Source: Alphaproteobacteria bacterium (GTDB taxonomy: Bacteria > Pseudomonadota > Alphaproteobacteria > CASFRQ01 > SAAU01). From it: a DNA stretch of 64,000 nucleotides. Location: assembly GCA_009929265.1 (NCBI GenBank), contig SAAU01000001.1, positions 58,245 to 122,244 of the forward strand, written 5' to 3'. Below the pieces are notes generated by a model that searched no databases, was not told the origin of the DNA, and was given only the letters and a program-made list of their open reading frames with translations. This document shows, in pieces, positions 19,168-36,203 of the stretch (its first letter is position 1; each line of letters begins with the position of its first letter). The translations under genes were made by a program, and so were the position numbers.

Positions 19168-20433
19168 ATGTATGACATAAAATGGATTCGTGAAAATCCA
19201 GAACTTTTTGATAGAGCCTTAAAACGGCGTGGGTTAGAAGCCCTTTCGGCTCAAGTTCTTGAAATGGATAAGAAAAACAGAGCTTTTCAGACTTCCTATC
19301 AAGATTTACAATCAAAAAGAAATACACTTTCAAAACAAATTGGACTTTTAAAAAAAGAGGGTAAAGATGCTTCTCAAGTTTTGGCAGAAGTTGCAGATCT
19401 CAAATCCCAAATGGAAGAAATCCAAAAAACAGATGACGATTTAGCTTTAGAGCTAAAAACACTTTTAGGATCTCTTCCTAATGTGCCGTCTGATGAATCT
19501 CCTGATGGGGCAGAAGAAAATGCGATAGAACTTCGTAAAGTTGGAACGAAAAAAGAATTTTCATTTAAGCCTTTGGAGCATTTCGAATTAGGCGAAAAAC
19601 TTCAAATGATGGATTTTGAACAAGCGGCTGTTATTTCTGGAGCGCGTTTTGTATTGCTTAAAGGGGCCTTGGCTCGCCTAGAGAGAGCTTTAGGGCAATT
19701 TATGCTTGATATGCACACAGAAAAGCATGGTTATACAGAAATGGAAGTGCCTCTTTTAGTAAAAGATGCGGCTGCTTTTGGAACAGGAAATTTACCTAAA
19801 TTTTCGGAAGATTTATTTAAGACAACAACAGGGTTTTGGCTTATTCCAACGGCTGAAACATCTTTGACAAACGTGGTAAATAGTTGCGTTGTTGAGGAAG
19901 ATACTCTTCCTATCAGAATAACGGCTTTAACGCCTTGTTTCCGTTCGGAAGCAGGGTCTGCCGGACGAGATACGCGTGGAATTATTCGTCAACATCAATT
20001 TTATAAGGTTGAAATGGTCAGCATTGTAAAACCAGAAGATTCTTATACTGAGTTGGAACGGATGACCTCTTCAGCAGAAGATATATTAAAGGCGTTAGGG
20101 CTTTCTTATCGTGTGATTTCTTTGACAGCTCAAGATATGAGTTTCTGTTCTCATAGAACATACGATTTGGAGGTTTGGCTTCCAGGTCAAGGCAAATATC
20201 GTGAGATTTCAAGCTGTTCAAACTGTGGGGAATTTCAAGCAAGACGAATGAATGCGAGATTTAAACCTAAAGGGCAAAAAGGAACCGAATTTGTTCACAC
20301 ATTAAATGGGTCAGGTTTGGCTGTTGGACGGACTTTAGTTGCCGTGATGGAAAATTATCAACAAGAAGATGGATCTATTGTTGTGCCAGAAGTTTTGCGG
20401 CCGTATATGAATGGAATTGAGGTCATTAAATAA
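19168..20433 (+). CDS. serS: seryl-tRNA synthetase
   Basis: 421 aa with an N-terminal coiled-coil arm and class II aaRS motifs. The C-terminal end reads [18 protein letters not shown]. Confidence 0.9.
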
Positions 20434-20450
20434 TTTTTAAGTGAGGTGAA

Positions 20451-20849
20451 ATGAAGGGGGTAAAAGAACTTTTTTTTCCTGTTATTGGAGATTATCGAGG
20501 AAATTTAATTGCCCTTGAAGGGAATAAAGATATTCCTTTTGAAGTTAAGCGTGTTTATTATATTTTTGATAATAAACACGATCTTGTTCGTGGAAAACAT
20601 GCTCATTATAACTTAAAACAGGTTATTTTCTGCCCCTCTGGACAATGTGATTTTATGCTTGATAATGGGGAAGAAAAAAAGACAATTACGCTTTCTTCTC
20701 CAGATAAAGCTATCTATATTGAAGGAAATGTTTGGCGAGAATTTACAAACTTTTCAAAAGGGTGTGCCGTCGTAGTTTTGGCGTCCGAACACTATGATGA
20801 AAGTGATTATATTCGAAATTATGATGATTTTATAAAAGCAGTTAAATAG
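20451..20849 (+). CDS. FdtA/WxcM-like cupin; putative dTDP-6-deoxy-3,4-keto-hexulose isomerase
   Basis: 132 aa with a small cupin fold. An HAH dyad (GKHAHYNL) matches the FdtA catalytic histidines. It sits next to the glycan cluster. Confidence 0.55.
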   Translation: MKGVKELFFPVIGDYRGNLIALEGNKDIPFEVKRVYYIFDNKHDLVRGKHAHYNLKQVIFCPSGQCDFMLDNGEEKKTITLSSPDKAIYIEGNVWREFTNFSKGCAVVVLASEHYDESDYIRNYDDFIKAVK

Positions 20850-20865
20850 GTCATCATTTAATTTA

Positions 20866-21834
20866 TCATTTCCAAAAATGCTTTTTTGTTTTTGAAAATA
20901 TCTTTATGCTCGCTATTTTTAAAACAGTTTTCTTCAAAAAAGGAGTTCCATAAATTTCTTTTTTAAAAATTAGAAATTTTGTTTTTGTTTTTATTAAAAC
21001 CGGTGTTTTTAAAAATTCTTGAACGTTTTGGAGCGTTTTGCCTTCATCAAGTTTTTTTAAGAGAGTATATTCATACTCTTTTGTCTTTGTAATGTTTTTT
21101 CTTAGTAAGTCTTTGTTTTTTATTGTATTTTTCGAGTGCCATCTATAAGACAAGAAAATTTCATCAATATATTTAATTTTATAATATTTTGAAATTTGCA
21201 TCATGAGCCACCAATCTTCAAGAGGGGCATCAGGGGAATAATATCCAATTTTATTAAAAATTTCAGATCTTAAAACATATCCATTTGGAATATAATTTCC
21301 AAAAAATAAAGTTTGATAGGTGCCAAAAAGAGCAGGGGTATTAAAATAATTTTTCTTGTTTAGAAATTCAGCAAAAGTCTTATATTTAGCTGTTTTTAAG
21401 GGTGTTTCGTTTTTATCCTTATCCCATCCAATTCTTTTTGAATTTTCATCAATAAATTCGTCATTTCCAACAACTAGGCCATAATCTTGATGAGCTTCTA
21501 AAAAAGAAACCCCCTTTTCAACAAGAGTGGGTTTGGCAACATCGTCAGAGGCGGACATATAAATATACTTTCCGTTCGTTTTTTTCAATAATTCATTAAC
21601 AGTTTGGCATGCTCCTTTATTAGGCCTTGTTGAAAAATCAACACGAATAAAGCGTTTTTTACAGACTTCTTCCATCGATTTTATAATGGAAAAAGTTTTA
21701 TCTGAAGATCCATCATCGATAATAATCAATTCCGCATTTTGATAAGTTTGGGCTATTAAAGATAAAATTGTTTCTTTAATATATTTTTCATGATTATAAG
21801 CTGCAATAATTATTGAAACTAAAGGTTTTTGCAT
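20866..21834 (-). CDS. family-2 glycosyltransferase
   Basis: The N-terminus reads VSIIIAAYNHEKYIKETILSL...IIIDDGSSD, the GT-A / GT2 signature with DxD-type motifs. It is the last gene of a 10-gene minus-strand operon. Confidence 0.7.
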   Translation of the reverse strand: MQKPLVSIIIAAYNHEKYIKETILSLIAQTYQNAELIIIDDGSSDKTFSIIKSMEEVCKKRFIRVDFSTRPNKGACQTVNELLKKTNGKYIYMSASDDVAKPTLVEKGVSFLEAHQDYGLVVGNDEFIDENSKRIGWDKDKNETPLKTAKYKTFAEFLNKKNYFNTPALFGTYQTLFFGNYIPNGYVLRSEIFNKIGYYSPDAPLEDWWLMMQISKYYKIKYIDEIFLSYRWHSKNTIKNKDLLRKNITKTKEYEYTLLKKLDEGKTLQNVQEFLKTPVLIKTKTKFLIFKKEIYGTPFLKKTVLKIASIKIFSKTKKHFWK

Positions 21835-21850
21835 TATGTATATCCTAGTT

Positions 21851-23131
21851 TTAAGAAATAAATCCTTTTTTCTTTAGTTGTTTATTAAAATGTTTCCATA
21901 TTTTGTAGTAAATTTTGTATTTTATTTGTGTCCAAGAAATTTTTTTCTTTTTGTGCTTTTTGAAGGGCGTTAATTTATAAGAAGAATTTGAAGCTTTAGA
22001 GGACATCGTCTTATGAATAAGGTCAATTCCCATATATTTTTCAATTTTTTCCAAGGTGTGAATAGGGCGACAAAATTCATTGATGGCTTTTTGAGATCCT
22101 TCAACAAGTTCCTTTCGCCAAAGAGTGTCTTTTAAAAGCTTTTGACAGAGGTCTCGGCATTCTGAAGGTGTCTCATAGGTTGGAATGTCGATATAGGGCG
22201 AGAGCTTCTTTAAATCGTCTTTTGGAGGGGAAATTAAAGCCGCATTTGAGGCCATAACGTCAGAAACACGCCAAGAAAGTCCATTTGGAGCTTGGTAATT
22301 ATATAAATTAGGGGAAATTAAAGACGAATTAAGGATTTCTTCATTTTCTTTTGTTGTTAAAACTTGCTTAAAATTAAAACATTTCATAAGTTCCCAAGAA
22401 TACCCCCCGCAAGGAATGAAATTATTTGGAATTCCAAAGACCTCTAACCCCAAATCTTGGATAGCATCCAAAACTTTTATACGAATATTAGATGTTTTAA
22501 TCTGCGTATAGGCGATTGAATCAATTCCTTGTTTTTCCATCTCGTTTATCGTATGGATGAATTCTTCTTGTGTTTTTGAATGTATAAGCGTATTTACTGC
22601 AATTCCTGGCCAGCCAATAAACCCAATAAAGCCAATATTTCTTTTGATTATGGCATTTGGGTCAGCCTGAACATTTGTCGTGTGCCCAATGTAGAAATTT
22701 TGTTCCTCTTTTATATCATAAATCTCTTTCAAAATGGCAGGGAAAATATTATTCCACCCGCCATGCATAAAGAAATAACGATCTTTATTTTCCTTAATAT
22801 ATTTTTTGTTTCTAAAATAAGCAGGACTATCTGCCGTATAAACCAAAATTGGGCAAGATGTGTTTTCCAAAATATCCAAAGGAATTTCATGATTTGGGGT
22901 AATAATAAGCTCTGGAGAAAAGTGATTGACTTTATTGATTAAATCCTCTTTATCGTAAAAGTAATGGACGACATTGTCTTTTGAAGATTTTATAAAATCA
23001 TTTGAAAGAAAGAGGAAAACCTCGTTTCCATTTTGCGTCAATGAATCTATAAAATTTTGAAAAAAGGAATCGATTAAACCCTTTCTTCTTGATGCGACAT
23101 TCGAAAGAACAGAGAAAAGAATTTTAGTCAT
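21851..23131 (-). CDS. hypothetical protein; possible GT-B/CgeB-like glycosyltransferase
   Basis: 426 aa with no confident motif. The guess rests only on position in the glycan operon and weak resemblance to CgeB-type domains. Confidence 0.25.
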   Translation of the reverse strand: MTKILFSVLSNVASRRKGLIDSFFQNFIDSLTQNGNEVFLFLSNDFIKSSKDNVVHYFYDKEDLINKVNHFSPELIITPNHEIPLDILENTSCPILVYTADSPAYFRNKKYIKENKDRYFFMHGGWNNIFPAILKEIYDIKEEQNFYIGHTTNVQADPNAIIKRNIGFIGFIGWPGIAVNTLIHSKTQEEFIHTINEMEKQGIDSIAYTQIKTSNIRIKVLDAIQDLGLEVFGIPNNFIPCGGYSWELMKCFNFKQVLTTKENEEILNSSLISPNLYNYQAPNGLSWRVSDVMASNAALISPPKDDLKKLSPYIDIPTYETPSECRDLCQKLLKDTLWRKELVEGSQKAINEFCRPIHTLEKIEKYMGIDLIHKTMSSKASNSSYKLTPFKKHKKKKISWTQIKYKIYYKIWKHFNKQLKKKGFIS

Positions 23132-23133
23132 TT

Positions 23134-24168
23134 TTACCTCAAAGCATAAACCGTTACATTTTTATATTTTTCCTCAATATTCTTTAACTCCGGAAGGTAT
23201 TTTTCATAATCTTTGCGTGTTATCATAAGGTGTTGAGGACAATTTTCACACAAGGTAAGTTTTTTGTTTAGAAATTCTTTTCTTATCTTGTTCAAATTTT
23301 TATTACAATAAAAGTCTTTTTTAATATTTTTATACGATCCAAAGTTAATATCAATATTAAAATCAGAACAACAAAGCCCCATTTTTCCATCTGGCTTTAT
23401 AACCGTGATATTAAAAGGTTGTGTGCAAAATTTCACAGGGTTTTTTCCTAAAGGAAGGAGGATTTTTTCCATTTTTTCATTTGCTTTAGGTTCAATTTTC
23501 TTAGTCTTTTTATTGTAATTCATAACCGGACCGACAGGACCAATTCTTAAAAAATCAACAAAAGGATGCCAAAGTTCAATGAATTTTTTAATGCGGGATT
23601 CTTTCGTCACAATGAAATTGATGCTGGTGTTTGGGGTATGAAGCCCTTTTTTTCTTCGTTCTTCAACAAGTTCATGAAATTTCTTAATGTTTTCAAAAAC
23701 CTGTTCGAAATTGAGGTTAATTCGAGAGGATTCATAACTTTCTTTATCATCTCCTTCAATAGAATACATAATTTCATCACACTTCATCATGGCATCAAAA
23801 TGTTTATGCGCCAAAGCCATATTTGTGGGAAAAATGACAGTGTAATTTTTGCTTTTTAAATAATCCACAAACTCATCAAAATCAGGGTGCATAAGGGGTT
23901 CGCCCTCGGCCGCCAATGTAATAATTTTAACAGATTCCATTTGTTCAATTTGCTTCATACTGGTATAGAAGATTTCTTTACTCATAAATCCGCTAATTTT
24001 TGGAGAAAGCAGTTGCCGTGGGCAAAAAGGGCAAGAAGCATTACAATAATAGCTAATATCCAAGATAACATTTGTTAAAAGGACGCTGCCTTTGTTTTTG
24101 GCTTTTTTCTTTCCTTTTATGGCATGCCTTAAGGTCTTTTCAAGAGAAGCTAACACAGGGATTTTCAT
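23134..24168 (-). CDS. radical SAM enzyme with Cys-rich C-terminal (SPASM/twitch-like) region
   Basis: A CxxxCxxC motif reads YYCNASCPFCP. The C-terminus reads CTQPF...GLCCSDF...YCNKN...CENCPQH, with at least 6 additional Cys. The protein is 344 aa. Confidence 0.6.
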   Translation of the reverse strand: MKIPVLASLEKTLRHAIKGKKKAKNKGSVLLTNVILDISYYCNASCPFCPRQLLSPKISGFMSKEIFYTSMKQIEQMESVKIITLAAEGEPLMHPDFDEFVDYLKSKNYTVIFPTNMALAHKHFDAMMKCDEIMYSIEGDDKESYESSRINLNFEQVFENIKKFHELVEERRKKGLHTPNTSINFIVTKESRIKKFIELWHPFVDFLRIGPVGPVMNYNKKTKKIEPKANEKMEKILLPLGKNPVKFCTQPFNITVIKPDGKMGLCCSDFNIDINFGSYKNIKKDFYCNKNLNKIRKEFLNKKLTLCENCPQHLMITRKDYEKYLPELKNIEEKYKNVTVYALR

Positions 24169-25055
24169 AAAGAGTTCCTTTCGAGTTCTTTTAAGAATAA
24201 TTTTGAAAATTTAACAGCGCCTTTTGAATTTAAATGCTCCCAATCCCAAAAATCATCATTCTCAAATTCTTTTGCATTAAAATAGTCTAAAAATTTGATA
24301 TTTTCTTTATTCGTTATATCAAATAAGGGGGTAAATAATTTTGTGTAATCAACATTATATTGAGGGCAAAGTTCTTTGCATTTCTTATGATAATCAGGAG
24401 AGTGAGGAGGGATAACAACAAGAAGATTTAACCCATATTGGGCACAAAGTTTATGAATTTGACGGACGTATTCTTCTTGATGGGTGTTGCGTTTAGCGTG
24501 CTTAATGTGTCCTTTTACGTTTATAAGAGAGACTTCTTCATTAAAAACGCCCTCAATAGGGGAATATCCCATATAATCTTTATTCAAAGGAGGAAGGTTT
24601 GATTTCATAAAGTCAATGGCATCCTTATAATAAACACCATCCCATGGGTATTTAAAATCAATATCAAAAATATTTTTATAGTATTGGCATAAAGGAGCGT
24701 TTACTGTTTTTTGCATTTCGGCCCCTGATGAAAAGACAGAAAAAAACAAAATGACTGTTTTTAAGTGTGGCAAGGTTGGAATGTATTTTTCGCAAAGCTT
24801 AAAAGATTGATACATATCTTGAGACGCAATGGATAGATTGAACGTTTTTGGGATGATTCCTGTATCAACGGCTGCTTGCCCATGAGAAGATCCCAAAACA
24901 AGGCGTTCAATATTATCTTTATTAAATTCAATGCCTTGTCTTTTATACTCATAAAAATCAACAACAGGAGGAAGATTTGCCTGTTTAACACGTTCCAAAA
25001 TTTTTTTATTTTTGCGTTTTTTATATCGTTTCTTTAAAGCCCTAATAAACGTCAT
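24165..25055 (-). CDS. hypothetical protein
   Basis: 296 aa with no recognised motif. It overlaps the radical SAM gene by 4 nt, which suggests translational coupling. Confidence 0.3.
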   Translation of the reverse strand: MTFIRALKKRYKKRKNKKILERVKQANLPPVVDFYEYKRQGIEFNKDNIERLVLGSSHGQAAVDTGIIPKTFNLSIASQDMYQSFKLCEKYIPTLPHLKTVILFFSVFSSGAEMQKTVNAPLCQYYKNIFDIDFKYPWDGVYYKDAIDFMKSNLPPLNKDYMGYSPIEGVFNEEVSLINVKGHIKHAKRNTHQEEYVRQIHKLCAQYGLNLLVVIPPHSPDYHKKCKELCPQYNVDYTKLFTPLFDITNKENIKFLDYFNAKEFENDDFWDWEHLNSKGAVKFSKLFLKELERNSL

Positions 25056-25058
25056 GCG

Positions 25059-25982
25059 TTAATCCTTTTCTAAAACGGCATATCCAAAACCGGTTTTTCC
25101 GCATCCATTTCCGTTATAGAAAAGATAAGTTTTATCTTTATACACAAAGCGATAGGCATAGCTTAAATTTTCGCTATCCCATCCTGTTTTAGAAAGTCCA
25201 ATTCCAACTTCACCGTCTTTTCTGTCCCAATGAATTCCATCTTTTGATTCGGCATACCCCAAATAATACCCTCTAGAATAAGTCCGAATCGAATAAATCA
25301 TTTTATATAAATCGCCGTCTTTCCAAACGTGAGGTCGGCCAAAGCCATGCTCATCCTCATTGGCATATTCCATACATTGAATAGGGTCTTTATTCCAGTG
25401 AATTCCATCGTCAGATTCGGTATACATCATGGTATAAAGAGGTTTTAATTTACCTTGAGCCTCTGTCCAGCCCTCTTTACAAGAGCCGACATACCACATT
25501 TTGATTTTACCGTTATCATTTAAGACTTGAATGCCGCATCTGGCATAGATTTCATCGCCTTGTCTATCCAAAACGGGGGATTGGGAATATTTTTTGAAGC
25601 TATATCCGCCATCTTCACTTATCGAAAGGCCGCCAAACATATAGTAGGGGACGTTAATCCCCATTTGAAAGCCGATGTAATACATATAAAGTTTGTCTTC
25701 AACCTTAACAACATCAATTGCGCCACATCCGTGATCATCAAAGCTTCCTGGTCGTCCAATATCATAAAATGGTTTTTCGGAGATTTCTAAAACCTCAGAT
25801 GGGTTTTCAGGATTAACGTCAATGTAGCCTTCTCTTGAAATCATATTTTTATCGCAAAGACTGGTGTAAATACGAAGTCTATCCTTTTCAATTAAATAAG
25901 GAATAGGGCATATTGCAAATTGGTTTTTCCAACTATCCTCCCCAGTGGGTTGATAGATTTGCCCCATTTTTTTCCACTTCAT
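25059..25982 (-). CDS. beta-propeller glycosidase/phosphorylase-like protein (GH130/DUF377/GH43-like fold)
   Basis: 307 aa, rich in Trp, Gly and Asp blade-like repeats (WKDGDLYKMIY, HWDRKDGEVG, WDSENLSYAY). The fold-level assignment is tentative. Confidence 0.3.
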   Translation of the reverse strand: MKWKKMGQIYQPTGEDSWKNQFAICPIPYLIEKDRLRIYTSLCDKNMISREGYIDVNPENPSEVLEISEKPFYDIGRPGSFDDHGCGAIDVVKVEDKLYMYYIGFQMGINVPYYMFGGLSISEDGGYSFKKYSQSPVLDRQGDEIYARCGIQVLNDNGKIKMWYVGSCKEGWTEAQGKLKPLYTMMYTESDDGIHWNKDPIQCMEYANEDEHGFGRPHVWKDGDLYKMIYSIRTYSRGYYLGYAESKDGIHWDRKDGEVGIGLSKTGWDSENLSYAYRFVYKDKTYLFYNGNGCGKTGFGYAVLEKD

Positions 25983-25985
25983 AAA

Positions 25986-26678
25986 TTATTCTCCCTCTTT
26001 AACCTGGCAAAAATAAGTTGCCGAAAAATCTTTTACTTTTTTGGCAGGATTCCCCCTATAAATACTGTTATCTCTGGTGTTTTTAGAAAGAACAGTTCCC
26101 ATTGAAATATAGTTATCTTTGCCGATTTTTATATTCTCCCCAATAAGACAACTGCCTCCCAAAAAGCAATTCATTCCCACATGGCAAAATCCTGCAATGC
26201 CGGCGGAGGCAAAAAAACAATTATCCTCTACAACACTATGATGTCCAATGATTGATTTATACCATAAAAAAACATTATTGCCGATTTGGGAAAAAGGTTG
26301 AAGGATTGAGGCGCCCAAAACAAGGCAGTTTTCGCCTATTTCAACATTATGCCAAACAAGAGCATCAGAGCTGATATAACTGGCCAAATGATACCCTTTT
26401 ACTTTAGCTGCGTTATAAAGCCTAGTTCTATCTCTATTTAAATGAGAACTGCTGAGGGCGACAAAGGCCTCGTATTCTTTTGGAGGATAGAGGGTTTCCA
26501 ACTCCTCAAACGCAACAACAGGAAGATTTTGGAAAGTTGATTCTTTTAAATAAGCCCTATTAACGGAAAATCCAACAACTTCATATTCCGAATCATGTGT
26601 AAAAAATTCATATGCTAAAAGCCCCGTCTCACCCGTTCCGATGATAATAAGCTTTTTTGTCTTATTCATATTCTGCAT
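25986..26678 (-). CDS. PglD/NeuD-family sugar N-acyltransferase (left-handed beta-helix)
   Basis: The N-terminal Rossmann-like segment reads KKLIIIGTGETGLLAYEF. Hexapeptide repeats follow (IGENCLVLGASIL, IGENIKIGKDNYI). The protein is 230 aa. Confidence 0.65.
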   Translation of the reverse strand: MQNMNKTKKLIIIGTGETGLLAYEFFTHDSEYEVVGFSVNRAYLKESTFQNLPVVAFEELETLYPPKEYEAFVALSSSHLNRDRTRLYNAAKVKGYHLASYISSDALVWHNVEIGENCLVLGASILQPFSQIGNNVFLWYKSIIGHHSVVEDNCFFASAGIAGFCHVGMNCFLGGSCLIGENIKIGKDNYISMGTVLSKNTRDNSIYRGNPAKKVKDFSATYFCQVKEGE

Positions 26679-26886
26679 TTCCTAAATCCAGAAGTTCTTT
26701 GACGGTATTGCATTCTCTGATTTTGCTAACTTCTAAAAAGAGGTTAAGATTGCTACTAAAGGCCAAAAGAACGGCTGTTTCCGCCAAGGAATCCCATTCA
26801 TCCATATCTAAAAGAAAATCTGATTCGTTCAATTCGTCTGCTTGAATAGCTTCTTTAATTTCCTCTAAAAAGGCTTCTCTTTTCAT
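26662..26886 (-). CDS. acyl carrier protein (discrete, cluster-dedicated)
   Basis: 74 aa, acidic and four-helix in size. The phosphopantetheine attachment-like motif reads DMDEWDSLAETAVLLAF (DSL). Its position between the KAS III and the acyltransferase supports the call. Confidence 0.5.
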   Translation of the reverse strand: MKREAFLEEIKEAIQADELNESDFLLDMDEWDSLAETAVLLAFSSNLNLFLEVSKIRECNTVKELLDLGNAEYE

Positions 26887-26889
26887 TAT

Positions 26890-28038
26890 TTATTCTCCTA
26901 ATTTTTCTTTCCATTCTTTAATGAGTTGAGATCTAGTTTTGAAGTTTTTATCTTTTTCAAATATATATATATCAGAACAATATATTTTTTCAATCGTTAA
27001 AATACACGATCCCCAAGATAATCCAACACCAAAGCCAGAAAGGAGAAGCTTTTGTTTTTTAGATTCAACAGATTCTTTTAAAGTGTCACATATTGTGCAC
27101 GGGATAGAAGCAATTGTTTGATTTCCAAACTTTTCAACACTAGACGAGGGGACTTTTTCAAGGGGAAAGTTCAAGCTTTTCCCAATCATTTGAATGATTT
27201 GCCTATTTGCTTGATGAAGGACAAGAGCCTCTATATCTTCAGGTGTTTTCTTTGCAAAATCCATTAAAGATTTAAGATGAGCAGGAACAACGGTCATTGT
27301 AAAGTTAAATACAGCTGAAGCATCCATATGAATGTCTTTTAAGCTGGTTGTATTTGTTCCTTTTTTTAAGTCCTTTATTAAATCAGCATTCTCTTTTTCG
27401 TCTTTTTTGAAAGGAATTCTTGCCCCACCTGCGGGAACAATGACGGCTTTATATCCTTCGCCCTTTGTTCCAAGTTCAAAATAGGCAGGCGTTTCTTTAT
27501 CGGTATATTCCAAAAGCGTTGCTGTTCCTGCGTCCCCAAAAATAGGAGCCGTCACGCGGTTGCGTAGATCCACATTTTTAGAAGAGGTATCTCCTGCACA
27601 TAAAAGAACTTTCCTACATTGTCCGCCTTCAATTAAAGAATGCGCAAGCCAAAGGCCGTAGGTATATCCTGTGCACCCTTGATTCACATCAAAAGCAGGA
27701 CAAGACAAAGGCATTTTTAATCTTTTGTGCATAACGCATGCGGTCGCAGGGGAAGAATAATCAGGATTTTGAACGACAAAAATTAAGGCGTCAATTTCAT
27801 CTTTATTAACTTGCATTTCCGTTAAAAGACGCTCGGCTGCCGCAACGCTTAAATCAGAGGCTGTCACATCCTCATCTGCGACATGGCGTTTATAAAGCCC
27901 CACCATTTTACGTGTGCGTTCTATTTTCTTGATATTGTTATCATAATACTGAAGTTCATCTTCTAAGCATATTTCTTGAGGAGGAATAACAGATGAAATT
28001 CCAGTGATTTTTACGTGTTTAAAAAGAGATTGCGTCAT
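26890..28038 (-). CDS. 3-oxoacyl-ACP synthase III (FabH-like KAS III) homologue
   Basis: 382 aa. An active-site Cys sits in the context NQGCTGYTYGL. C-terminal His/Asn-containing motifs (HQANRQI, GNQTIASIP) and SGFGVGLSWGS are typical of FabH. Confidence 0.7.
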   Translation of the reverse strand: MTQSLFKHVKITGISSVIPPQEICLEDELQYYDNNIKKIERTRKMVGLYKRHVADEDVTASDLSVAAAERLLTEMQVNKDEIDALIFVVQNPDYSSPATACVMHKRLKMPLSCPAFDVNQGCTGYTYGLWLAHSLIEGGQCRKVLLCAGDTSSKNVDLRNRVTAPIFGDAGTATLLEYTDKETPAYFELGTKGEGYKAVIVPAGGARIPFKKDEKENADLIKDLKKGTNTTSLKDIHMDASAVFNFTMTVVPAHLKSLMDFAKKTPEDIEALVLHQANRQIIQMIGKSLNFPLEKVPSSSVEKFGNQTIASIPCTICDTLKESVESKKQKLLLSGFGVGLSWGSCILTIEKIYCSDIYIFEKDKNFKTRSQLIKEWKEKLGE

Positions 28039-28979
28039 TTTATTTCCAATTTATATGAATCATAAAGGAGCGCTCTGCCGCCAAATTCTTGCTTTTGTTC
28101 AATAAGGCCTTCGTTTAAAAAGCGTCCTTCTTCTTCGGTTGAAATACCAAAATCAAAATAGTCTTTATCAGTATAGACTTCATTAATGAGCTTATCAAAA
28201 ACAAAATCAAGGGCCCCGATAGTGCGGCCGTCAAACGAGTTCATAATATACTGGGCATGAGCGACCTTGGGAGTTGAAAACATTAAGACGCCTGCCATCA
28301 TTTGTCCTTCTTTAAACGACGCATAAAGCTTTATATTTTCTGGGAATCTTTCCTTTAGAAGGTGAAGCTCTTGTGCACTATGAACAGGGGAGGCGTTATG
28401 TTTTTCTTTCAAAATATCCGTTAAAAGAGAAATGTAGGTTTCAAAATCTGTTGATTCTTTGAATTCAAGGCCTGCTTTTTCGGCTTTTTTAAGATTTCGT
28501 TTGCGTCGTGTATTAAAAGGAATTCTCTCTTTTAAATCGACAACTGTTGAAATATCTCTGCGATACAAAATAGCGTTATTTCTAAAAAGGGCATAAATAT
28601 CTTCGTCAGACGGATAGGTGTAATACAAGCTAGGAACCCGTTTATAAAGAAGTTCGGAAATGTTATTTTCTTTAAAAAAAATCTTTAAATCATCAAAGAT
28701 TTCTAAAGCATCAACGGCTCTTAAATCCTTGTTTGAAATAAGGCCCCCATAGGTTAATCCGCCATGTGAACGCACCTCAGTTCCATGTAAGGACGCCGGT
28801 AAAAGAGCAATCAAAGTTTCTTTTTTATAGAACATAAGCGAAAAATCATGAAATCTATCGGCATGATAGTCCATAAAATCTCGATTAAGCATAAACGTCC
28901 CATTTTTGGAAGAGGAAATAAAATCATTCCAAATCTTTTTATCTTGAGACGTATATTTAACAATCCTAATCATTTTCAT
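28035..28979 (-). CDS. hypothetical protein; possible GNAT/FemAB-fold acyltransferase
   Basis: 314 aa with no confident motif. It is sandwiched between the two KAS III genes with 4-nt and 14-nt overlaps. Confidence 0.25.
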   Translation of the reverse strand: MKMIRIVKYTSQDKKIWNDFISSSKNGTFMLNRDFMDYHADRFHDFSLMFYKKETLIALLPASLHGTEVRSHGGLTYGGLISNKDLRAVDALEIFDDLKIFFKENNISELLYKRVPSLYYTYPSDEDIYALFRNNAILYRRDISTVVDLKERIPFNTRRKRNLKKAEKAGLEFKESTDFETYISLLTDILKEKHNASPVHSAQELHLLKERFPENIKLYASFKEGQMMAGVLMFSTPKVAHAQYIMNSFDGRTIGALDFVFDKLINEVYTDKDYFDFGISTEEEGRFLNEGLIEQKQEFGGRALLYDSYKLEIK

Positions 28980-30036
28980 AATCTCGAAGGGGAGAACAAT
29001 AAATTTTATCTGTTGTAAGTAAAACAGAGGCCCAGCTTAACCCCACGCCAAAGCCACAAAGAAGAATTTTGTTTTTCTTTTGAGAGACGCTTTCTTGAAT
29101 CCTGTCAGAAATTGTGCACGGAATTGAGGCCCCACAAGTATTTCCATATTGTGTCAAAGTTGTAATAGGCGTTTTTTCCATTGGAATTTCAAGTGTTTTT
29201 GCTACGTTTTCAACAATAAATTTATTGGCTTGATGAAAGATAAAATGATCTATTTCTTCTTTCTTTTGTCCGGAATACTTGAAAAGTTCTGCCACATTTG
29301 GAGCAATTTCCCTTAATGTGAATTGGAAGATTTTCCCTCCATCCATTTTGGAGCCATACTTAAATGTGCCATCTTCATAAAAGTCTTCGGGTTTAGGAGG
29401 ATTCCGAAATCCACCATTTTCACAAACTAAGGCGTCGTAGTAGTGCCCATTTGATTGGATGTTGAAATACATATCATCAGCTGTTTCATCTCGTTCCAAC
29501 AAAGTTGCAGAACCGCCATCCCCAAAAACAGGGGCAGAATTATTTTGAAACATATCGGTGAATTTATTAAATGTATCACCCACCAAAAGAAGGACGCGTT
29601 TACAGCCATTATTTAACAACATAGAGGCTTGATAAATTCCCAATACATATCCAGAACAAGCTTGCGGGATGTCCATAACGACACAATTATCAGACAAATC
29701 AAGCTTCTTATGCAAGACATATGACGTGGCTGGCATCAAGAAATCAGGGGTATAACTGATGAATAAAAGGGCATCAATGGAGGCTCTATCTATCTTTAAT
29801 TTTGAAAGTAAATCATTTGCCGCGTTTTCACATAAATCAGCCGTTGTGACGTTGTCTTCAGCCACCCTGCGCTTTAAAAACCCAGAAGAATTGACAACTC
29901 TATCAATACGACGCTTATCTCCAAAATAAAGATTTTTATTATCTAGTAAAGAGATCTCCTTTGGGGGAACGACGGATGAAATACCAGAAATTTTAACGTT
30001 TTTTATACAAGCTTTTACCATGTTTGTTTGAACCAT
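28966..30036 (-). CDS. 3-oxoacyl-ACP synthase III (FabH-like KAS III) homologue, second copy
   Basis: 356 aa. An active-site Cys sits in the context PQACSGYVLGI. It also has HQANKFI, GNTCGASIP and CGFGVGLSWAS. It is the first gene of the minus-strand operon. Confidence 0.7.
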   Translation of the reverse strand: MVQTNMVKACIKNVKISGISSVVPPKEISLLDNKNLYFGDKRRIDRVVNSSGFLKRRVAEDNVTTADLCENAANDLLSKLKIDRASIDALLFISYTPDFLMPATSYVLHKKLDLSDNCVVMDIPQACSGYVLGIYQASMLLNNGCKRVLLLVGDTFNKFTDMFQNNSAPVFGDGGSATLLERDETADDMYFNIQSNGHYYDALVCENGGFRNPPKPEDFYEDGTFKYGSKMDGGKIFQFTLREIAPNVAELFKYSGQKKEEIDHFIFHQANKFIVENVAKTLEIPMEKTPITTLTQYGNTCGASIPCTISDRIQESVSQKKNKILLCGFGVGLSWASVLLTTDKIYCSPLRDYEND

Positions 30037-30216
30037 TCTTATTGAAATTAAATTTAGTGTTCTTCAAAGAACTTATATAGAATACTCTATTTTTATAATT
30101 AAAATCAAGAAGTATCTCCCTTTTAAATCGTAAATTTTTATGACAAAATAAGACATTATTCCCTTGTGAGAGTTTTAATTTTTGCTATACTTTAATAAAA
30201 CATCAAGGAGATAGCG

Positions 30217-31305
30217 ATGATTAAATTTTTAGACTTGCATAAGATAAATGAGCGGTTTCGGGTTGAAATGGATGCCAAAATAAAAGAGGTTTTGGATTCT
30301 GGTTGGTATCTTCAAGGGAAACAAAATGAAGCTTTTTCAAAGCATTTTGCTGATTTTTGTGGAACAAAATATGCTTTAGGTGTTGGAAATGGACTAGAGG
30401 CTTTAAGTTTAATTATTCAAGCGTATGGATTTCAAAAAGGAGACGAAATTATTGTGCCTGCCAATACCTATATTGCCACAATCTTAGCTATTTCAAAAAA
30501 TGGATGCACCCCTATTTTAGTGGAGCCAGATGAAGAGACTTTCTGTTTGAATCCAGATTTAATTGAGGCGAAAATTACCTCAAAAACAAAGGCTATTATG
30601 CCTGTTCATTTATATGGACAAGCAGCGGATATGGATAAAATAGGAGAACTTGCCAAAAAATATAATCTAAAGGTGATTGAAGATGCCGCTCAAGCGCATG
30701 GGGCTTTGTATAAGGGAAAACGTGTGGGAAATTTAGGGGATGCGGCAGGATTTTCTTTCTATCCTGGTAAGAATTTAGGCGCCTTGGGAGATGCAGGGGC
30801 CATTACGACAAATGATGAGGCACTTTATATAAAAGCAAAAGCTTTGGCCAATTATGGATCTGATAGAAAATATCATCATATTTATAAAGGGGAAAATTCT
30901 AGATTGGATGAAATTCAAGCCGCTTTATTGGATGTGAAGTTGCCTTATTTGGATGAAGACAATCAAAAACGCAGAGAAATCTCCCTTTATTATAGAGAAC
31001 ATATTAAAAACCCTTTAATTACTCTTCCTACAACGAAAGACGAATTGTCTCACGTTTGGCATGTTTTTGTTGTTCGGACGCAAGAACGGGAACGTTTGCA
31101 AAAGTATTTGGAAGAAAACGAAATTCAAACGAATATTCATTATCCTACGGCGCCACATCATCAAGGGGCTTATGTGGAACTTAAGGACTTATCCCTTCCA
31201 ATTACAGAAAAAATCCATCGGGAAGTAATGTCCTTGCCTATCTCTCCTGTTATGACTGAGAAGGAAGTTCAAAGGGTTGTAGACGTGGTCAATGCCTTTA
31301 AATAA
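30217..31305 (+). CDS. DegT/DnrJ/EryC1/StrS-family PLP-dependent sugar aminotransferase (FdtB/WecE-like)
   Basis: 362 aa. The N-terminus ([14 protein letters not shown]...) is typical of the DegT family. Conserved Lys-bearing motifs match the AAT fold-I sugar aminotransferases. Confidence 0.85.
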
Positions 31306-31326
31306 GGTGAGTTTTAGGGGAAAGTT

Positions 31327-32022
31327 ATGTTTTTTATTAAACAACAAGTGAGGAAGTATGGGCATATTATTTCTTTAGGATATAATTGCGAAATTTCCTT
31401 TCAATTTTTTCTAAAATACCATTTTGTTGAAAGTAGTTTGTTTGCTTGGGTAAATTGTTTAAATGTTGATAATTTAATTTACGCTTTATCACATTTAGAC
31501 AAGGTTTGTTCCGGAGAAATTAAAAATATAAAACCAATGTGGAAATGTGAAAATACAGGAATCTGTTTCCATGGAAAAACATCTATGAAAATTATGATAA
31601 ACAATCTTTCTGCTCAAATTTTAAAAGAAGATAAAGAAGAATTGTTGAGCAGAGTTTCCTATTTAAAGAATAAATTTATTCAAACATCTTCCGATGGGAA
31701 AAAGAATCTTTACATATTTAAATATCCCTCAAAAGAAGAATCTGACATTACAGAGAAAATAAATCTTTTGTATGAAAAATTAGATAATCTTGTTGAAAAT
31801 GAATTTGATTTACTAATCATTTTGGAAAATGATTTTTGTTCTAAAATACAGGAAAATGTATTTAATCCTCATATTTTTATTCGGCGAGTTGATTTTTTTA
31901 CAAAAGAAGAAGATGTGACTTCTAAAGAAAATGATTTTAAACACTATAAAAAAATATTTAAAGAATTTCGTCCTGATTTTAAACAAAAAAAGAAGAAAAA
32001 ATTTAAGTTTGAGGAAATTTAG
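31327..32022 (+). CDS. hypothetical Lys-rich protein with conserved G-x-N/A-C-E...FxW motif (DUF1796-like?)
   Basis: 231 aa. The N-terminus reads SLGYNCEISFQF...SLFAWVN. It is paralogous to the next ORF. Confidence 0.3.
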   Translation: MFFIKQQVRKYGHIISLGYNCEISFQFFLKYHFVESSLFAWVNCLNVDNLIYALSHLDKVCSGEIKNIKPMWKCENTGICFHGKTSMKIMINNLSAQILKEDKEELLSRVSYLKNKFIQTSSDGKKNLYIFKYPSKEESDITEKINLLYEKLDNLVENEFDLLIILENDFCSKIQENVFNPHIFIRRVDFFTKEEDVTSKENDFKHYKKIFKEFRPDFKQKKKKKFKFEEI

Positions 32023-32023
32023 A

Positions 32024-32770
32024 GTGAAGAAAAAATATGATTTGATTTTTGGGATAGGGGAAGCGTGTTCTTGCACTCAAGCTTTAAGAGGGGCTGGGCT
32101 TCAGATTAAATCTTTTCCTTTCGATTGGCTTTATGGATCTGATTTTTTAGGTCGGATTGAAATTTTAAGCTCTTGTTTTAAGGATTTTTTTAAAAAAGAA
32201 GATTTGGTTGACACAAAAACAACAAATTTGGATAAGAAAAATTTATGTAAAATTTATAAAAATAAAAGAAATAAAATTGTTTTTAATCACGATTTTCTTG
32301 AAAAAATGCCTTTTGATGAAGCGTATCCTAGCATTTTTGAAAAATATCAAAGGCGGATAGGGCGGCTATTTTCTTTAATTAAACAGGCAAAAAGTTTTTT
32401 AGTTGTTTACATTGAAACCCCAAACGCTGAAGAAAAATTAACAGATAAAAAAGATTTAAAAAAAGCTTTTAATTTTTTGCAAAAGGCTTTCCCCCATAAA
32501 AAGATAGATTTAATTTACTTTTCTAATACGACAAAGGCCTTTGATAAACAGAGTTTTGAAGAGGTTTCCAAGCATATTCTTTTAGCACGTTTCAATTATA
32601 GTAGCATAAAGGAAAATGACCCTGATTATGCGATAAATGGAAAGCTTATTAAAAAGATATTAAGACAGAAATTTCGTCTAAAAATGTCTTTCAAAGAAAG
32701 GATTTATCAGATCTTAAGAAAAAGGGGAAAGAAACTCTTAAGACGACTCGAAAAAATTAAAAAAAGTTAG
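32024..32770 (+). CDS. hypothetical Lys-rich protein, paralogue of 31327-32022
   Basis: A GTG start at 32024 has GAGGAAA 8 nt upstream. The N-terminus reads GIGEACSCTQAL...FPFDWLYGSDF, parallel to the upstream paralogue. Confidence 0.3.
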   Translation: MKKKYDLIFGIGEACSCTQALRGAGLQIKSFPFDWLYGSDFLGRIEILSSCFKDFFKKEDLVDTKTTNLDKKNLCKIYKNKRNKIVFNHDFLEKMPFDEAYPSIFEKYQRRIGRLFSLIKQAKSFLVVYIETPNAEEKLTDKKDLKKAFNFLQKAFPHKKIDLIYFSNTTKAFDKQSFEEVSKHILLARFNYSSIKENDPDYAINGKLIKKILRQKFRLKMSFKERIYQILRKRGKKLLRRLEKIKKS

Positions 32771-34868: not shown

Positions 34869-36203
34869 ATGTTTAAAGAAAGGAAGAACGTGTCAATTAA
34901 ATTAGAAATTCCTGTTCTGTTTTCTCCTCTTTTAAAAGAAAAAAAACGCTATAAGCTTTATTATGGAGGGCGGGCAGGGGGAAAAAGTTATGCTTTTGCC
35001 GAAAGCATCCTCCTTAAAGGGCGAATGGAAAAGCTTTTTATTGTCTGTGTACGTGAAATTCAAGAGAGTATTAAAGAATCTGTTTATAAGCTGCTTTCCG
35101 ATAGAATTGAAAAATTAGGCCTCTCAGATTACAAAATTTTTGAAAGAAAAATCGAAAATAAGCTAACAGGAACGAAAATTATCTTTAAGGGATTAAGAGA
35201 TCAGGATGCCTCAAAGATAAAGTCCTTAGAAGGGGCGGATATTTGCTGGATTGAAGAAGGGCAATCTATTACAAAGAAAAGCTGGAATATTTTAGATCCA
35301 ACCATTCGAAAGGAAGGCTCCGAAATCTGGATTTCTATGAATAGAGAAAATGAAAACGATGCTCTTTGGATGATTTTAGGCAAACATCCCGATAAAAGGA
35401 CGTTGGTTCAAAAAGTTAATTTTATGGATAATCCCTTCTGTCCCGAAGAAATTAAATTTCAGGCCAAAAAATGCCTCAAAGATAGACCAGAAGAATATCC
35501 ACATATTTGGCTGGGAGAGCCTAAATCTCAAGCCGATAAGACGTTAATTTCATCTGGATTGATCTTAAAAGCTTTTCAAACGAAAGGAATTCTTTCCAAA
35601 AGTCCACTTGTGATTGGAGTCGATATTGCCAGATTTGGATCAGATAAAAGTGCTTTTGTTTACAGAAAAGGCCGGTCGTGTTTTAAGTATGAGCTTTTGT
35701 CCTCTCAAGATACAGTGGATATTGCCAATCGATTAACAGCTTTAATCTATGAGGTGCATCCCCATAAGATTTTCTTAGATTTGGGAAATTCCGGGGCAGG
35801 GGTCTACGATATCCTAAATGATAGAGGGTTTTCCGAGATTGTTGTTGGGATAAATTTTGGTGCTAAAGCCATTCAAAAGGATAGATATGTCAATAAACGT
35901 GCCGAAATGTGGGACGGTATTCGATTATGGCTTTCGGGAAAATTGCCCGTTGAGCTTTTAGAACATGAAGGCGTGCTTTCTGATTTGATTTCGGTTCAAA
36001 AAAAGTATGATAGCTATGGGCGATTACAGCTTGAAAGCAAGGATGAACTTAAGAAGAGGTTAGGGCATTCTCCTGATATTGGGGATGCTTTAGCTTTGAC
36101 CTTTGCAGAGCCTGTTTTCGAAAAAACACCGCCAAAGCTTTACAAATCTGGTGTTTCTTTTGAAGATCTTTTTCAAGAAGAAAAGCTCGATTTATCCTGG
36201 TGA
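34869..36203 (+). CDS. phage terminase large subunit (PBSX-like family)
   Basis: 444 aa. The Walker A-like ATPase motif reads YYGGRAGGKSYAFAE. A C-terminal nuclease-like half contains acidic residues (VIGVDIARFGSDKSAF). Confidence 0.75.
   Translation: MFKERKNVSIKLEIPVLFSPLLKEKKRYKLYYGGRAGGKSYAFAESILLKGRMEKLFIVCVREIQESIKESVYKLLSDRIEKLGLSDYKIFERKIENKLTGTKIIFKGLRDQDASKIKSLEGADICWIEEGQSITKKSWNILDPTIRKEGSEIWISMNRENENDALWMILGKHPDKRTLVQKVNFMDNPFCPEEIKFQAKKCLKDRPEEYPHIWLGEPKSQADKTLISSGLILKAFQTKGILSKSPLVIGVDIARFGSDKSAFVYRKGRSCFKYELLSSQDTVDIANRLTALIYEVHPHKIFLDLGNSGAGVYDILNDRGFSEIVVGINFGAKAIQKDRYVNKRAEMWDGIRLWLSGKLPVELLEHEGVLSDLISVQKKYDSYGRLQLESKDELKKRLGHSPDIGDALALTFAEPVFEKTPPKLYKSGVSFEDLFQEEKLDLSW

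Follow-up and report, generated by a model that had tools for sequence, protein, structure and literature searches.

Gene Content and Organization of the Locus

The analyzed window is a 64,000-nt stretch of DNA from a metagenome-assembled alphaproteobacterium (assembly GCA_009929265.1, contig SAAU01000001.1, positions 58,245 to 122,244), and the positions given below are counted from its first nucleotide. Between positions 20451 and 32770, the window contains a glycan island, which is an N-acyl amino-dideoxyhexose cassette of the 3-amino branch, fed by an acyl carrier protein (ACP) and two β-ketoacyl-ACP synthases III (KAS III) and having no reductase. Plus-strand genes are found at both ends of the island: a gene for an FdtA-type ketoisomerase at the left end and, at the right end, a gene for a DegT-family aminotransferase followed by genes for a 231-aa protein and a DUF1796 protein. 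Ten open reading frames (ORFs) between them form a minus-strand operon running from 30036 to 20866. In order, this operon encodes the KAS III paralog "a", a Fem-type tandem-GNAT transferase (herein referred to as the Fem-like protein), the KAS III paralog "b", the ACP, an acyltransferase with a left-handed β-helix (LbH), a β-propeller protein, an SGNH-like protein, a radical SAM enzyme, a CgeB-like glycosyltransferase, and a GT2 glycosyltransferase.

The ORFs of this operon overlap by 14, 4, 17, and 4 nt or are separated by gaps of 2–16 nt, and these junctions agree with the ten-gene operon proposed in a preliminary description of this DNA. A divergent intergenic region of 180 bp (30037–30216), the presumed promoter region, separates the operon from degT. 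This region contains a -35/-10-like site at 30164–30191, and the sequence AAGGAG precedes degT. Scans for promoter-like and terminator signals gave nothing above the shuffled expectation, and thus no operon boundaries were drawn from them.

The seven products named in the preliminary description, i.e., FdtA, DegT, LbH, GT2, ACP, and the two KAS III, are real; they are supported by Pfam and NCBIfam matches or, for the ACP, by the fold. That inventory was incomplete, as it did not mention the Fem-like protein, the propeller, the SGNH-like protein, the radical SAM/SPASM enzyme, the CgeB-like glycosyltransferase, or the two ORFs after DegT. The island was compared with homologous loci numbered L001–L090 and with two further loci, L091 and L092; counts of loci with the Fem-like gene refer, unless stated otherwise, to the best 80 genome loci. 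Only one short contig, L091, was available as a near-identical locus, and when the contig index was searched for the exact KAS and SerS sequences of the window, no match was found.

Synthesis of the 3-Amino-3,6-Dideoxyhexose

The ketoisomerase FdtA (20451–20849, plus strand, 132 aa) matches PF05523 over its full length (160.6 bits at a cut-off of 23, E-value 2e-47) and contains the HAH motif (His50-Ala-His52), as an FdtA/QdtA-type dTDP-4-keto-6-deoxyglucose 3,4-ketoisomerase. Its PDB matches include WlaRB (5tpu, 143 bits, E-value 5e-41), the Helicobacter canadensis protein 7n67 (135 bits), FdtA (2pa7, 134 bits), QdtA (120 bits), and WlaRA (92 bits), as well as the WxcM-like protein 4mzu (312 aa). 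The structure of WlaRB is named as 5TPU in the literature (PMC9095892).

The aminotransferase (30217–31305, plus strand, 362 aa) belongs to the QdtB/FdtB/WlaRG type dependent on pyridoxal phosphate (PLP). It matches PF01041 with 384 bits (E-value 8.5e-115), and the PLP-binding lysine is Lys185 in the motif YPGKN. In the PDB search, 7n63 from H. canadensis (E-value 5e-156), WlaRG (5u1z, 1e-151), and QdtB (3frk, 6e-127) were ranked ahead of any 4-aminotransferase. The assignment of both enzymes to a branch leading to 3-amino-3,6-dideoxygalactose (Fuc3N) or 3-amino-3,6-dideoxyglucose (Qui3N), proposed earlier, is supported by these matches of DegT to WlaRG and QdtB and of FdtA to WlaRB, FdtA, and QdtA. 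Thus, the predicted product of FdtA and DegT, dTDP-3-amino-3,6-dideoxyhexose, is well supported by homology. The ranking of the nearest relatives leans toward the gluco form, Qui3N, rather than Fuc3N, with the ketoisomerases ranked against FdtA assigned to those products that we take them to make.

By homology, the pathway would start from dTDP-4-keto-6-deoxyglucose formed by RmlA and RmlB, which would be isomerized to the 3-keto sugar by the FdtA/WlaRB-like enzyme and transaminated by DegT to dTDP-Qui3N or dTDP-Fuc3N. RmlA and RmlB would be encoded elsewhere: as noted previously, rmlA and rmlB are missing from the window, and neither these genes nor wzx, wzy, or an ABC exporter were found in it by Pfam searches of the larger ORFs and a motif scan.

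Homologous pairs of isomerase and aminotransferase are known from the FdtA/FdtB/FdtC and QdtA/QdtB/QdtC pathways, from WlaRA/WlaRB/WlaRG of Campylobacter jejuni 81116, and from the pathway for formylated Qui3N in H. canadensis. Each of these ends with just one acylation, in which a CoA or folate donor provides an N-acetyl or N-formyl group. In contrast, the island has two amide-forming transferases and a supply line made of ACP and KAS.

KAS III Pair and Dedicated ACP

The KAS III paralogs "a" (28966–30036, 356 aa, the first gene of the minus-strand operon) and "b" (26890–28038, 382 aa, minus strand) both have the domains PF08545 and PF08541 and are 40% identical to each other. Their catalytic triads, Cys127/His268/Asn299 in "a" and Cys122/His275/Asn306 in "b", are well supported as competent, and all 22 KAS homologs from related loci retain the Cys-His-Asn triad. 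In the cassettes with a single KAS (L009, L031, and L041), the lone enzyme is of the "a" type.

FabH Pfam domains and an intact triad would also be expected if both proteins were ordinary housekeeping FabH enzymes of fatty acid synthesis, an explanation to which next to no probability can be given. Both proteins are below the cut-off of the fabH equivalog family TIGR00747 (203.5 bits for "b" and 182.8 bits for "a" at a cut-off of 292.1) and below that of PRK12880 (289 and 243 at a cut-off of 436). The closest PDB structure is not a canonical FabH but 4efi, an uncharacterized Burkholderia paralog (E-value 3e-65 for "b" and 8e-60 for "a"). Both proteins carry insertions that make them 40–65 residues longer than the matched FabH entries of PDB (about 317 aa), no fabD, fabG, or acpP is located nearby, and the close homologs are all found in the same glycan cassette. 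At 49% identity, a remoter homolog likewise adjoins a small ACP, accompanied there by an SDR-type (short-chain dehydrogenase/reductase) enzyme. Because of the missed fabH cut-offs, the nearest structure, and the location of the close homologs in glycan cassettes, the pair is judged from sequence to be cassette-specific. The preliminary description would have been refuted by housekeeping KAS enzymes, and on this point it was upheld.

The gene for the dedicated ACP (26662–26886, minus strand) encodes a 74-aa protein, publicly annotated at NCBI as a hypothetical protein. No match to it was found in sequence searches of Pfam (including PP-binding PF00550), NCBIfam, or PDB. The AlphaFold (AF2) model of this protein, built from an alignment of 4 sequences and having a pLDDT of 77, contains helices at residues 3–13, 33–47, 53–57, and 62–71. 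The predicted phosphopantetheine site, Ser33 of a WDSL motif, is placed at the start of helix II. In a Foldseek search of this model against PDB, the best 50 matches were all acyl or peptidyl carrier proteins (TM-score 0.54–0.83). A profile alignment by hhalign places the DSL motif in register with that of E. coli AcpP (E-value 0.014), and the residues W-D-S are invariant in 7 ACP homologs. Thus, the cluster-specific ACP of the preliminary description holds: by its modeled four-helix fold, its motif, and its position, and not by membership in a sequence family, the protein is well supported as a divergent private ACP.

No short-chain dehydrogenase/reductase (SDR) or FabG was found in the island by Pfam and NCBIfam, in line with the earlier statement that a FabG-like reductase is absent. 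Among related KAS-bearing cassettes, a ketoreductase is absent from 7 of 8 and present in L023 only. By analogy with the viosamine island described below, the two KAS III may build a short β-ketoacyl chain on the private ACP. The first condensation would give an acetoacetyl group, and the second KAS may extend it to a C6 chain or take a different primer.

Fem-Type GNAT Family

The Fem-like gene (28035–28979, minus strand, 314 aa) is lodged between the two KAS III genes and overlaps both of them at stop and start codons, in the window as well as in its relatives. The protein has the tandem-GNAT Fem fold. Its sole sequence match in PDB is Sbb17, a structure solved with the amino-sugar compound streptothrisamine. 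The segment FKLGFGG of Sbb17 aligns to QK296QEFGG of the Fem-like protein; Lys296 is invariant in 24 of 24 family sequences, and the residue before it is Gln, not Phe. Lys296 matches in position the lysine of the catalytic Phe-Lys motif described for FemX_Wv (Lys305) and DhpH-C (Phe328-Lys329); Sbb17 is an aminoacyl-tRNA-dependent peptide synthase, and Orf11 from the biosynthesis of BD-12, a streptothricin-type compound, aminoacylates an amino sugar (PMC12945691). Identity of the Fem-like protein to FemX/FemA and to Orf11/Sbb17 is only 11–16%. FemX and FemA act in peptidoglycan, whereas the Fem-like gene lies in a dTDP-sugar surface-glycan cluster.

The family of roughly 311-aa proteins to which this enzyme belongs includes more than 6,900 database proteins and was found in at least 572 species-representative genomes of many phyla, with Alistipes and alphaproteobacterial members being about 60% identical. 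No complete E. coli genome yielded a blastn match to the gene, a result that at this divergence is uninformative as to whether serogroups with aminoacylated Qui3N or Qui4N have it. FdtA is fused to the Fem-like gene in one ORF in 18 of the 80 loci, all belonging to Bacteroidaceae or Bacteroidales. For example, the 475-aa fusion of L067 (9527–10954) has FdtA at its N-terminus, in residues 31–158; the other 17 fusions are found in L038, L042, L045, L048, L049, L051, L052, L058, L060, L064, L069, L070, L079, L080, L083, L085, and L088. A separate FdtA gene is linked to the Fem-like gene in 40 further loci, so that fused and linked cases account for 58 of 80, and a DegT gene lies within 6 kb in 43 of 80. 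Both the Fem-type fold and the association with FdtA by fusion or linkage are well supported.

The Fem-like gene is found together with LbH in 25 loci and with a formyltransferase in 6 loci. The latter takes the place of LbH in Bacteroidales, in the order FdtA-Fem-formyltransferase-DegT. The Alistipes formyltransferase matches Met-tRNA formyltransferase over both domains with an E-value of 3e-15, compared with 7e-11 to 1e-7 for the Qui3N formyltransferases QdtF, WlaRD, and 7n7a. Being nearer to Met-tRNA formyltransferase, it gives a weak hint of a substrate with an α-amino group.

The Fem-like enzyme is herein predicted to transfer an amino acid from aminoacyl-tRNA to the 3-amino group of the sugar, a role suggested by the fold, the fusions, and the context. 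It would parallel the action of FemX on UDP-MurNAc-peptide and the aminoacylation of the streptothrisamine amino sugar by Orf11, for which Sbb17 provides the matching solved structure. The chance that the enzyme uses aminoacyl-tRNA is put at slightly below even. Several observations weigh against it. The FemAB family of Pfam is not matched, and the only Pfam match is to PF13480 (Acetyltransf_6), with 22.6 bits at a cut-off of 22; the score for the NCBIfam family FemAB PEP-CTERM is 44.5 at a cut-off of 260. The use of aminoacyl-tRNA is deduced from the fold and one motif. To our knowledge, the sugar formyltransferases characterized so far use the bare sugar amine. In nine loci, FdtA and DegT are the only partners of the Fem-like gene. 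Finally, the Fem-like domain of the FdtA fusions would by analogy occupy the position that the N-acetyltransferase has in the FdtD/WxcM fusions, so it could simply be a CoA-dependent N-acyltransferase.

These last points lead to an alternative in which the Fem-like protein replaces FdtC/QdtC as the sugar N-acyltransferase, using acetyl-CoA or acyl-ACP, and LbH is an O-acyltransferase acting on a hydroxyl group. The isomerase and N-acetyltransferase of FdtD/WxcM (e.g., 4mzu) are mirrored by the FdtA-Fem fusions, the minimal loci have FdtA, Fem, and DegT only, and the NeuD family, to which LbH is related, also includes O-acetyltransferases. In addition, the public annotation of the Fem-like protein is "GNAT family N-acetyltransferase". 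The likeness to FdtD/WxcM consists in an FdtA fused to a presumed acylating enzyme; the partner in Bacteroidaceae is a Fem-type tandem GNAT and not an LbH protein, and in the window FdtA and Fem are separate genes on opposite strands. This alternative leaves the invariance of the Fem-type catalytic lysine motif without a reason, and the pairing with a formyltransferase would mean two N-acyl donors for one amine. It is considered rather improbable.

Some members of the family are found elsewhere. Several of the FdtA-Fem fusions stand alone, far from any DegT gene. Fem-like homologs of 44–50% identity were also found in Pontibacter/Hymenobacteraceae (L026, L028, L033, L034, L039, L040, L044, and L059), with no FdtA, DegT, or LbH nearby. 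The neighbors of the Fem-like gene in L026 are, on either side, a histidine-kinase-like gene and one whose 2,553-aa product has a Por secretion tail. A second, unrelated context may thus exist for the family.

LbH Acyltransferase and Comparison with the Viosamine Island

The LbH acyltransferase (25986–26678, minus strand, 230 aa) is of the NeuD/PglD/VioB type. It aligns over its full length (9–213) to TIGR03570 (NeuD/PglB/VioB) with 152.0 bits at a cut-off of 160.8. PglD (2npo) is the best PDB match (E-value 1e-12), followed by VioB (7txp) and PerB (4ea7), and His146/147 align to the region of the catalytic His of PglD. The LbH and ACP genes share 17 nt. In a neighbor-joining tree, LbH proteins from KAS-bearing loci group together, consistent with a switch of the donor to acyl-ACP. 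It is probable that LbH uses acyl-ACP as its donor; LbH orthologs of similar identity were found in loci without KAS and ACP, which leaves such use short of proof.

Among known systems, the nearest counterpart is the viosamine island found in Pseudomonas syringae pv. tabaci 6605 (vioA, vioS, acp, vioR, vioB, vioM, and vioT), in which VioS, a 69-aa ACP, VioR, and VioB provide the N-(3-hydroxybutanoyl)viosamine found on flagellin; orfA-orfE of the flagellin glycosylation island of P. aeruginosa PAK were grouped with it (PMC3927599). Both this island and the window encode a DegT aminotransferase, a KAS III, a small divergent ACP (69 and 74 aa, respectively), an LbH of the NeuD/PglB/VioB type, and a transferase, and they share the purpose of placing a short acyl group derived from fatty acid synthase on a dTDP-amino-6-deoxyhexose. 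The viosamine island makes a 4-amino sugar and has no ketoisomerase, whereas the window has FdtA and a 3-aminotransferase. One KAS III is found in the former and two in the latter. VioR, the 3-oxoacyl-ACP reductase needed to form the 3-hydroxybutanoyl group, has no counterpart in the glycan island of the window. The Fem-type GNAT, the GH130-like propeller, and the radical SAM enzyme are absent from the viosamine island, whose target is flagellin.

This comparison supports another alternative, namely that the island is the 3-amino counterpart of the viosamine island. LbH would acylate the 3-amino group of the sugar directly to give N-(3-oxoacyl) dTDP-Qui3N or dTDP-Fuc3N, and the Fem-like GNAT would have an unrelated job, such as acetylation of another position or another sugar, or action on the finished glycan. 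Besides the precedent of VioS, ACP, and VioB (PMC3927599), the usual action of LbH enzymes of the PglD, VioB, and PerB type on the sugar amine itself, the separate clade of the KAS-linked LbH proteins, and the overlap of the ACP and LbH genes speak for this explanation. It does not account for Fem, which of all components has the tightest link to FdtA (58 of 80 loci, 18 of them with fusions) and is moreover lodged between the KAS genes with overlapping codons both in the window and in its relatives. It also has to reconcile a single aminotransferase with two amide-forming transferases, and in Bacteroidales the Fem-like gene is similarly paired with a formyltransferase. Direct acylation is accordingly regarded as unlikely, though more probable than the alternative with Fem as the N-acyltransferase. 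The N-acylated sugar with an ACP-borne acyl group, as first described, is consistent with the dedicated ACP and the lack of a reductase; its direct acylation by LbH ignores the Fem-type GNAT.

Propeller, SGNH/Radical SAM Pair, and Glycosyltransferases

The propeller gene (25059–25982, minus strand) encodes a 307-aa GH130/GH43-like five-bladed β-propeller ("DUF377-type"). Its only Pfam match is a weak one to PF00251 (GH32N), and its score for the NCBIfam β-mannobiose phosphorylase family is 41 at a cut-off of 450. The family profile matches the GH130 β-1,2-mannobiose phosphorylase 7fip (E-value 7e-16) in two partial stretches, as well as GH117, GH43, and GH32 structures (7e-16 to 1e-7 overall). 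The family contains 505 clusters (50% identity) at E < 1e-30, and its members are labeled "GH43/DUF377 family" at JGI. A propeller gene was found in 27 of the 80 Fem loci, and it is located between LbH and Fem across many phyla. The profile likeness extends to the GH130 β-1,2-mannoside phosphorylases (7fip, 9fj8) and to GH117/GH43/GH32 propellers. Unlike the GH130 enzymes, the island's propeller is stand-alone and cytoplasmic-looking and is encoded between an acyltransferase and the Fem-like protein, with no context of carbohydrate degradation; no catalytic residues could be assigned in it. The protein "unk313" of L009 was rejected as a separate family, being 61% identical to the propeller family.

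The DUF1574/SGNH-like protein (24165–25055, minus strand, 296 aa) weakly matches PF07611 (E-value 3.5e-4) and GDSL and also matches TIGR02171 (E-value 3.7e-10). The radical SAM/SPASM (twitch) enzyme (23134–24168, minus strand, 344 aa) matches PF04055 (44.9 bits) and PF13186 (26.4 bits), and its CxxxCxxC motif consists of Cys42, Cys46, and Cys49. The two genes overlap by 4 nt in the window and are merged into one 623-aa fusion in L005 (9809–11680) and L006.

Two glycosyltransferases are encoded at the end of the operon. The CgeB-like enzyme (Glyco_trans_1_2; 21851–23131, minus strand, 426 aa) matches PF13524 (E-value 1.8e-7), and such a gene again follows the Fem-like gene in L023, L029, L031, L036, and L041. 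The GT2 enzyme (20866–21834, minus strand, 322 aa) is encoded by the last gene of the operon, matches PF00535 (E-value 1.6e-25), and has homologs of 44–48% identity in L004–L006, L018, L024, L031, L036, and L041. In L004 (7897–13959), a fusion of the CgeB-like glycosyltransferase with a sulfotransferase domain (885 aa) is followed by phosphonate genes for a cytidylyltransferase-phosphoenolpyruvate mutase, a phosphonopyruvate decarboxylase, and an iron-type alcohol dehydrogenase (Fe-ADH), which suggests that the glycan also exists in a form carrying phosphonate or sulfate.

Two plus-strand ORFs are located after degT. For the 231-aa protein (31327–32022, 24.6% GC), no Pfam or NCBIfam match was found; a gene of the same length occupies the same position after degT in L091, and a homolog of 33% identity was found in L018. 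The DUF1796 protein (PF08795, E-value 2.3e-12) is encoded at 32024–32770, and a DUF1796 gene follows degT in L004–L006, L018, L031, and L041. The ORF opens at 31931, overlapping the preceding gene by 92 nt. The true start is likely the GTG at 32024, right after the stop of the previous gene, in agreement with the gene calls of L091, which begin right after the preceding stop.

Conservation of the Cassette

In the loci L004–L006, which have 68%-identical KAS III, the genes are arranged in one direction in the order DegT-DUF1796-GT2-FdtA-KASa-Fem-KASb-ACP-LbH-propeller-(SGNH~radical SAM)-GT1_2. In relatives at 58–85% identity, FdtA, DegT, KAS, ACP, and LbH are colinear in one operon, and hence FdtA and DegT belong with the KAS/ACP/LbH block. 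The unity of the cassette is therefore well supported, and the possibility that FdtA and DegT belong to different pathways, at which the preliminary description could have failed, is countered by this colinearity. The divergent layout of the window is repeated in L091, whose Fem-like protein is 96% identical.

The LbH-propeller-Fem trio recurs in 25–27 of the 80 loci and is accompanied by KAS III in about 8 of 80 (about 10%). Thus, this trio is the recurring core of the FdtA/DegT module, and KAS and ACP are accessory to it. On a plasmid of Devosia neptuniae, the module is found within a Wzx-type O-antigen cluster. A compact version is located on the megaplasmid of Ruegeria sp. TM1040 (L092; NC_008043.1, 445506–452498), where LbH, propeller, and Fem lie between a gene for an OGT-like "UDP-GlcNAc-peptide N-acetylglucosaminyltransferase" and the genes for GT2, DegT, and FdtA. 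This OGT-like gene hints at protein glycosylation.

The combination of KAS III, ACP, and GNAT is also known from natural-product clusters, and distant KAS homologs (49%) are found beside a small ACP in another context, with SDR, B12-radical SAM enzymes, and methyltransferases. The KAS/ACP/GNAT/LbH block might on these grounds make a free lipid- or polyketide-like small molecule, such as an N-acyl amino acid, with the sugar genes adjacent by chance. Such an explanation is very improbable: every close relative retains the gene order that includes FdtA, DegT, GT2, and additional glycosyltransferases, FdtA-Fem gene fusions exist, and the module lies inside the Wzx-type cluster of Devosia and beside GT2, DegT, and FdtA in Ruegeria sp. 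TM1040.

In two Alistipes loci, genes for Thoeris-like defense proteins (ThsB_TIR, ThsA_Macro, and TIR_2) were found at 5827–8001 (L007) and 2939–5113 (L008), with DUF3791 and DUF3990 genes upstream of them (4763–5675 and 1875–2787, respectively). These defense genes are inserted between fdtA and Fem-formyltransferase-DegT of the polysaccharide locus.

Predicted Pathway and Its Significance

Taken together, the island is interpreted as a conserved surface-glycan cassette that would make and transfer a heavily N-decorated 3-amino-3,6-dideoxyhexose, and the model as a whole is given a probability of about 0.5. One aminotransferase is accompanied by two transferases that form amide bonds, which is better matched by an N-(acyl-aminoacyl) decoration added in two steps than by a simple N-acyl group. 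After formation of the amino sugar, the Fem-like GNAT would attach an amino acid to the 3-amino group, and LbH would move the ACP-bound acyl group onto the free α-amine of the aminoacyl sugar. That the acyl group goes to this α-amine, and not to the amine of the sugar, is a possibility rated just under one in two. Sugars of this kind have been documented, including Qui3N(N-acetyl-Ala), Qui4N(N-3-hydroxybutyryl-Ala), Qui3N acylated by 3-hydroxy-2,3-dimethyl-5-oxoproline, and sugars with 3,5-dihydroxyhexanoyl groups (PMC3210612, PMC7685785).

As no ketoreductase is encoded, the β-keto group would be either kept or used in further chemistry. For example, an N-acetoacetyl-aminoacyl group could be cyclized to an acyl group of the 3-hydroxy-3-methyl-5-oxoprolyl type, a known substituent of Qui3N. 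The oxoprolyl acyl group may formally be regarded as a cyclized N-acetoacetyl-alanyl group, which would explain the unreduced ketone and offer a possible job for the propeller or the radical SAM/SPASM enzyme. Enzymes of the radical SAM/SPASM class abstract C-α hydrogens of amino acid residues. The propeller and the pair of SGNH-like and radical SAM/SPASM proteins would tailor the product, and the GT2 and CgeB-like glycosyltransferases would install the sugar on its acceptor.

The later steps of this scheme have their own weak points. The roles given to the second KAS, the propeller, and the radical SAM enzyme are guesses. The ACP model is of moderate confidence only (pLDDT 77, 4 sequences), and nothing was found in the window to load malonate on the private ACP or to phosphopantetheinylate it.

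O-antigens, capsules, and flagellin glycans commonly contain, as immunodominant parts, amino sugars whose N-acyl groups are amino acids and short hydroxy or oxo acids, and the enzymes attaching the amino acid to these sugars are largely unassigned. It is tentatively proposed that the Fem-like family is the missing aminoacyl-tRNA enzyme that hangs the amino acid on the amine of dTDP-3-amino-3,6-dideoxyhexose, with the amino acid capped in this island by an unreduced β-ketoacyl group, maybe cyclized to an oxoprolyl-type one. No description of the Fem/propeller/LbH module was found in the literature searched, which did not extend to most subscription journals. In a 2026 review of aminoacyl-tRNA-dependent enzymes, the terms "polysaccharide" and "nucleotide sugar" are absent and no such substrates are given (PMC12945691).

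If the proposed function is true, it would explain how amino sugars with N-(acetyl-, formyl-, or hydroxybutyryl-aminoacyl) groups arise in O-antigens and capsules. The few uses of charged tRNA outside the ribosome would then extend to nucleotide sugars of surface glycans, connecting translation in a new way with the synthesis of cell-surface glycans. If the Fem-like enzyme is merely an acetyltransferase, the island would be an ordinary variant of an O-antigen-type locus. The trio of LbH, GH130-like propeller, and Fem-type GNAT is very widespread, unstudied, and attached to the Qui3N/Fuc3N pathway. Its cultivable carriers include Ruegeria sp. TM1040, Roseovarius nubinhibens ISM, Leisingera aquimarina, Bacteroides salyersiae, and Devosia neptuniae, and Ruegeria sp. 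TM1040, a model roseobacter, offers a genetic test system for the module.

Nucleotide Composition and Genomic Neighborhood

The GC content of the island is 33.6%, compared with 37.0% for the remainder of the window, and the island is the lowest-GC 12.3-kb stretch of the window (1.4th percentile). The composition is mosaic: 31.4% in the left arm (FdtA to SGNH), 36.7% in the core (propeller to DegT), and 26.9% at the right end, with the AT excess borne by GT2 (27.9% GC), by the two ORFs after DegT, and, to a lesser extent, by the left arm. The island was previously called markedly more AT-rich than serS and rnj. This is correct for serS only, because rnj (33.7% GC) is as AT-rich as the island, and "markedly" overstates the difference, as the core equals the background. 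For the same reason, composition alone does not demonstrate horizontal exchange of the core, of which the AT-richness had been taken as a sign.

The upstream flank consists of the housekeeping genes argS, serS, and those for a SPOR protein and an M50 peptidase, and the downstream flank begins with rnj. No tRNA genes or Rfam elements were found in or near the island. The end of serS is separated from the start of fdtA, on the same strand, by 17 nt (region 19168–20849). This adjacency was dismissed as a pointer to the use of seryl-tRNA; it is probably a coincidence, since no aminoacyl-tRNA synthetase gene is located near the Fem-like gene in 90 other loci (L001–L090). Genes for an Fe-only hydrogenase and an oxaloacetate decarboxylase are found farther along the window, suggesting an anaerobic gut-type organism as the source.

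A phage-like block, or one resembling a gene transfer agent, lies directly after rnj (34869–42100) and includes genes for a terminase large subunit (PF04466, 34869–36203) and a P22-like portal protein (36585–38444). Phage_tail_APC genes adjoin the same glycan cassette in the relatives L004 and L006, and the neighborhood of glycan island and phage-like cluster thus seems to be conserved within the lineage.

Two further observations concern other parts of the window. A MutL-like ORF at 11998–12933 encodes only 311 aa (ATPase and DNA_mis_repair domains), and a 189-aa ORF (11080–11649) lies just downstream on the same strand; together they could be a split or truncated mutL. At 51360–52706, a 448-aa ORF combines a full TsaD domain (tRNA t6A) with a C-terminal thioredoxin domain, an unusual fusion.

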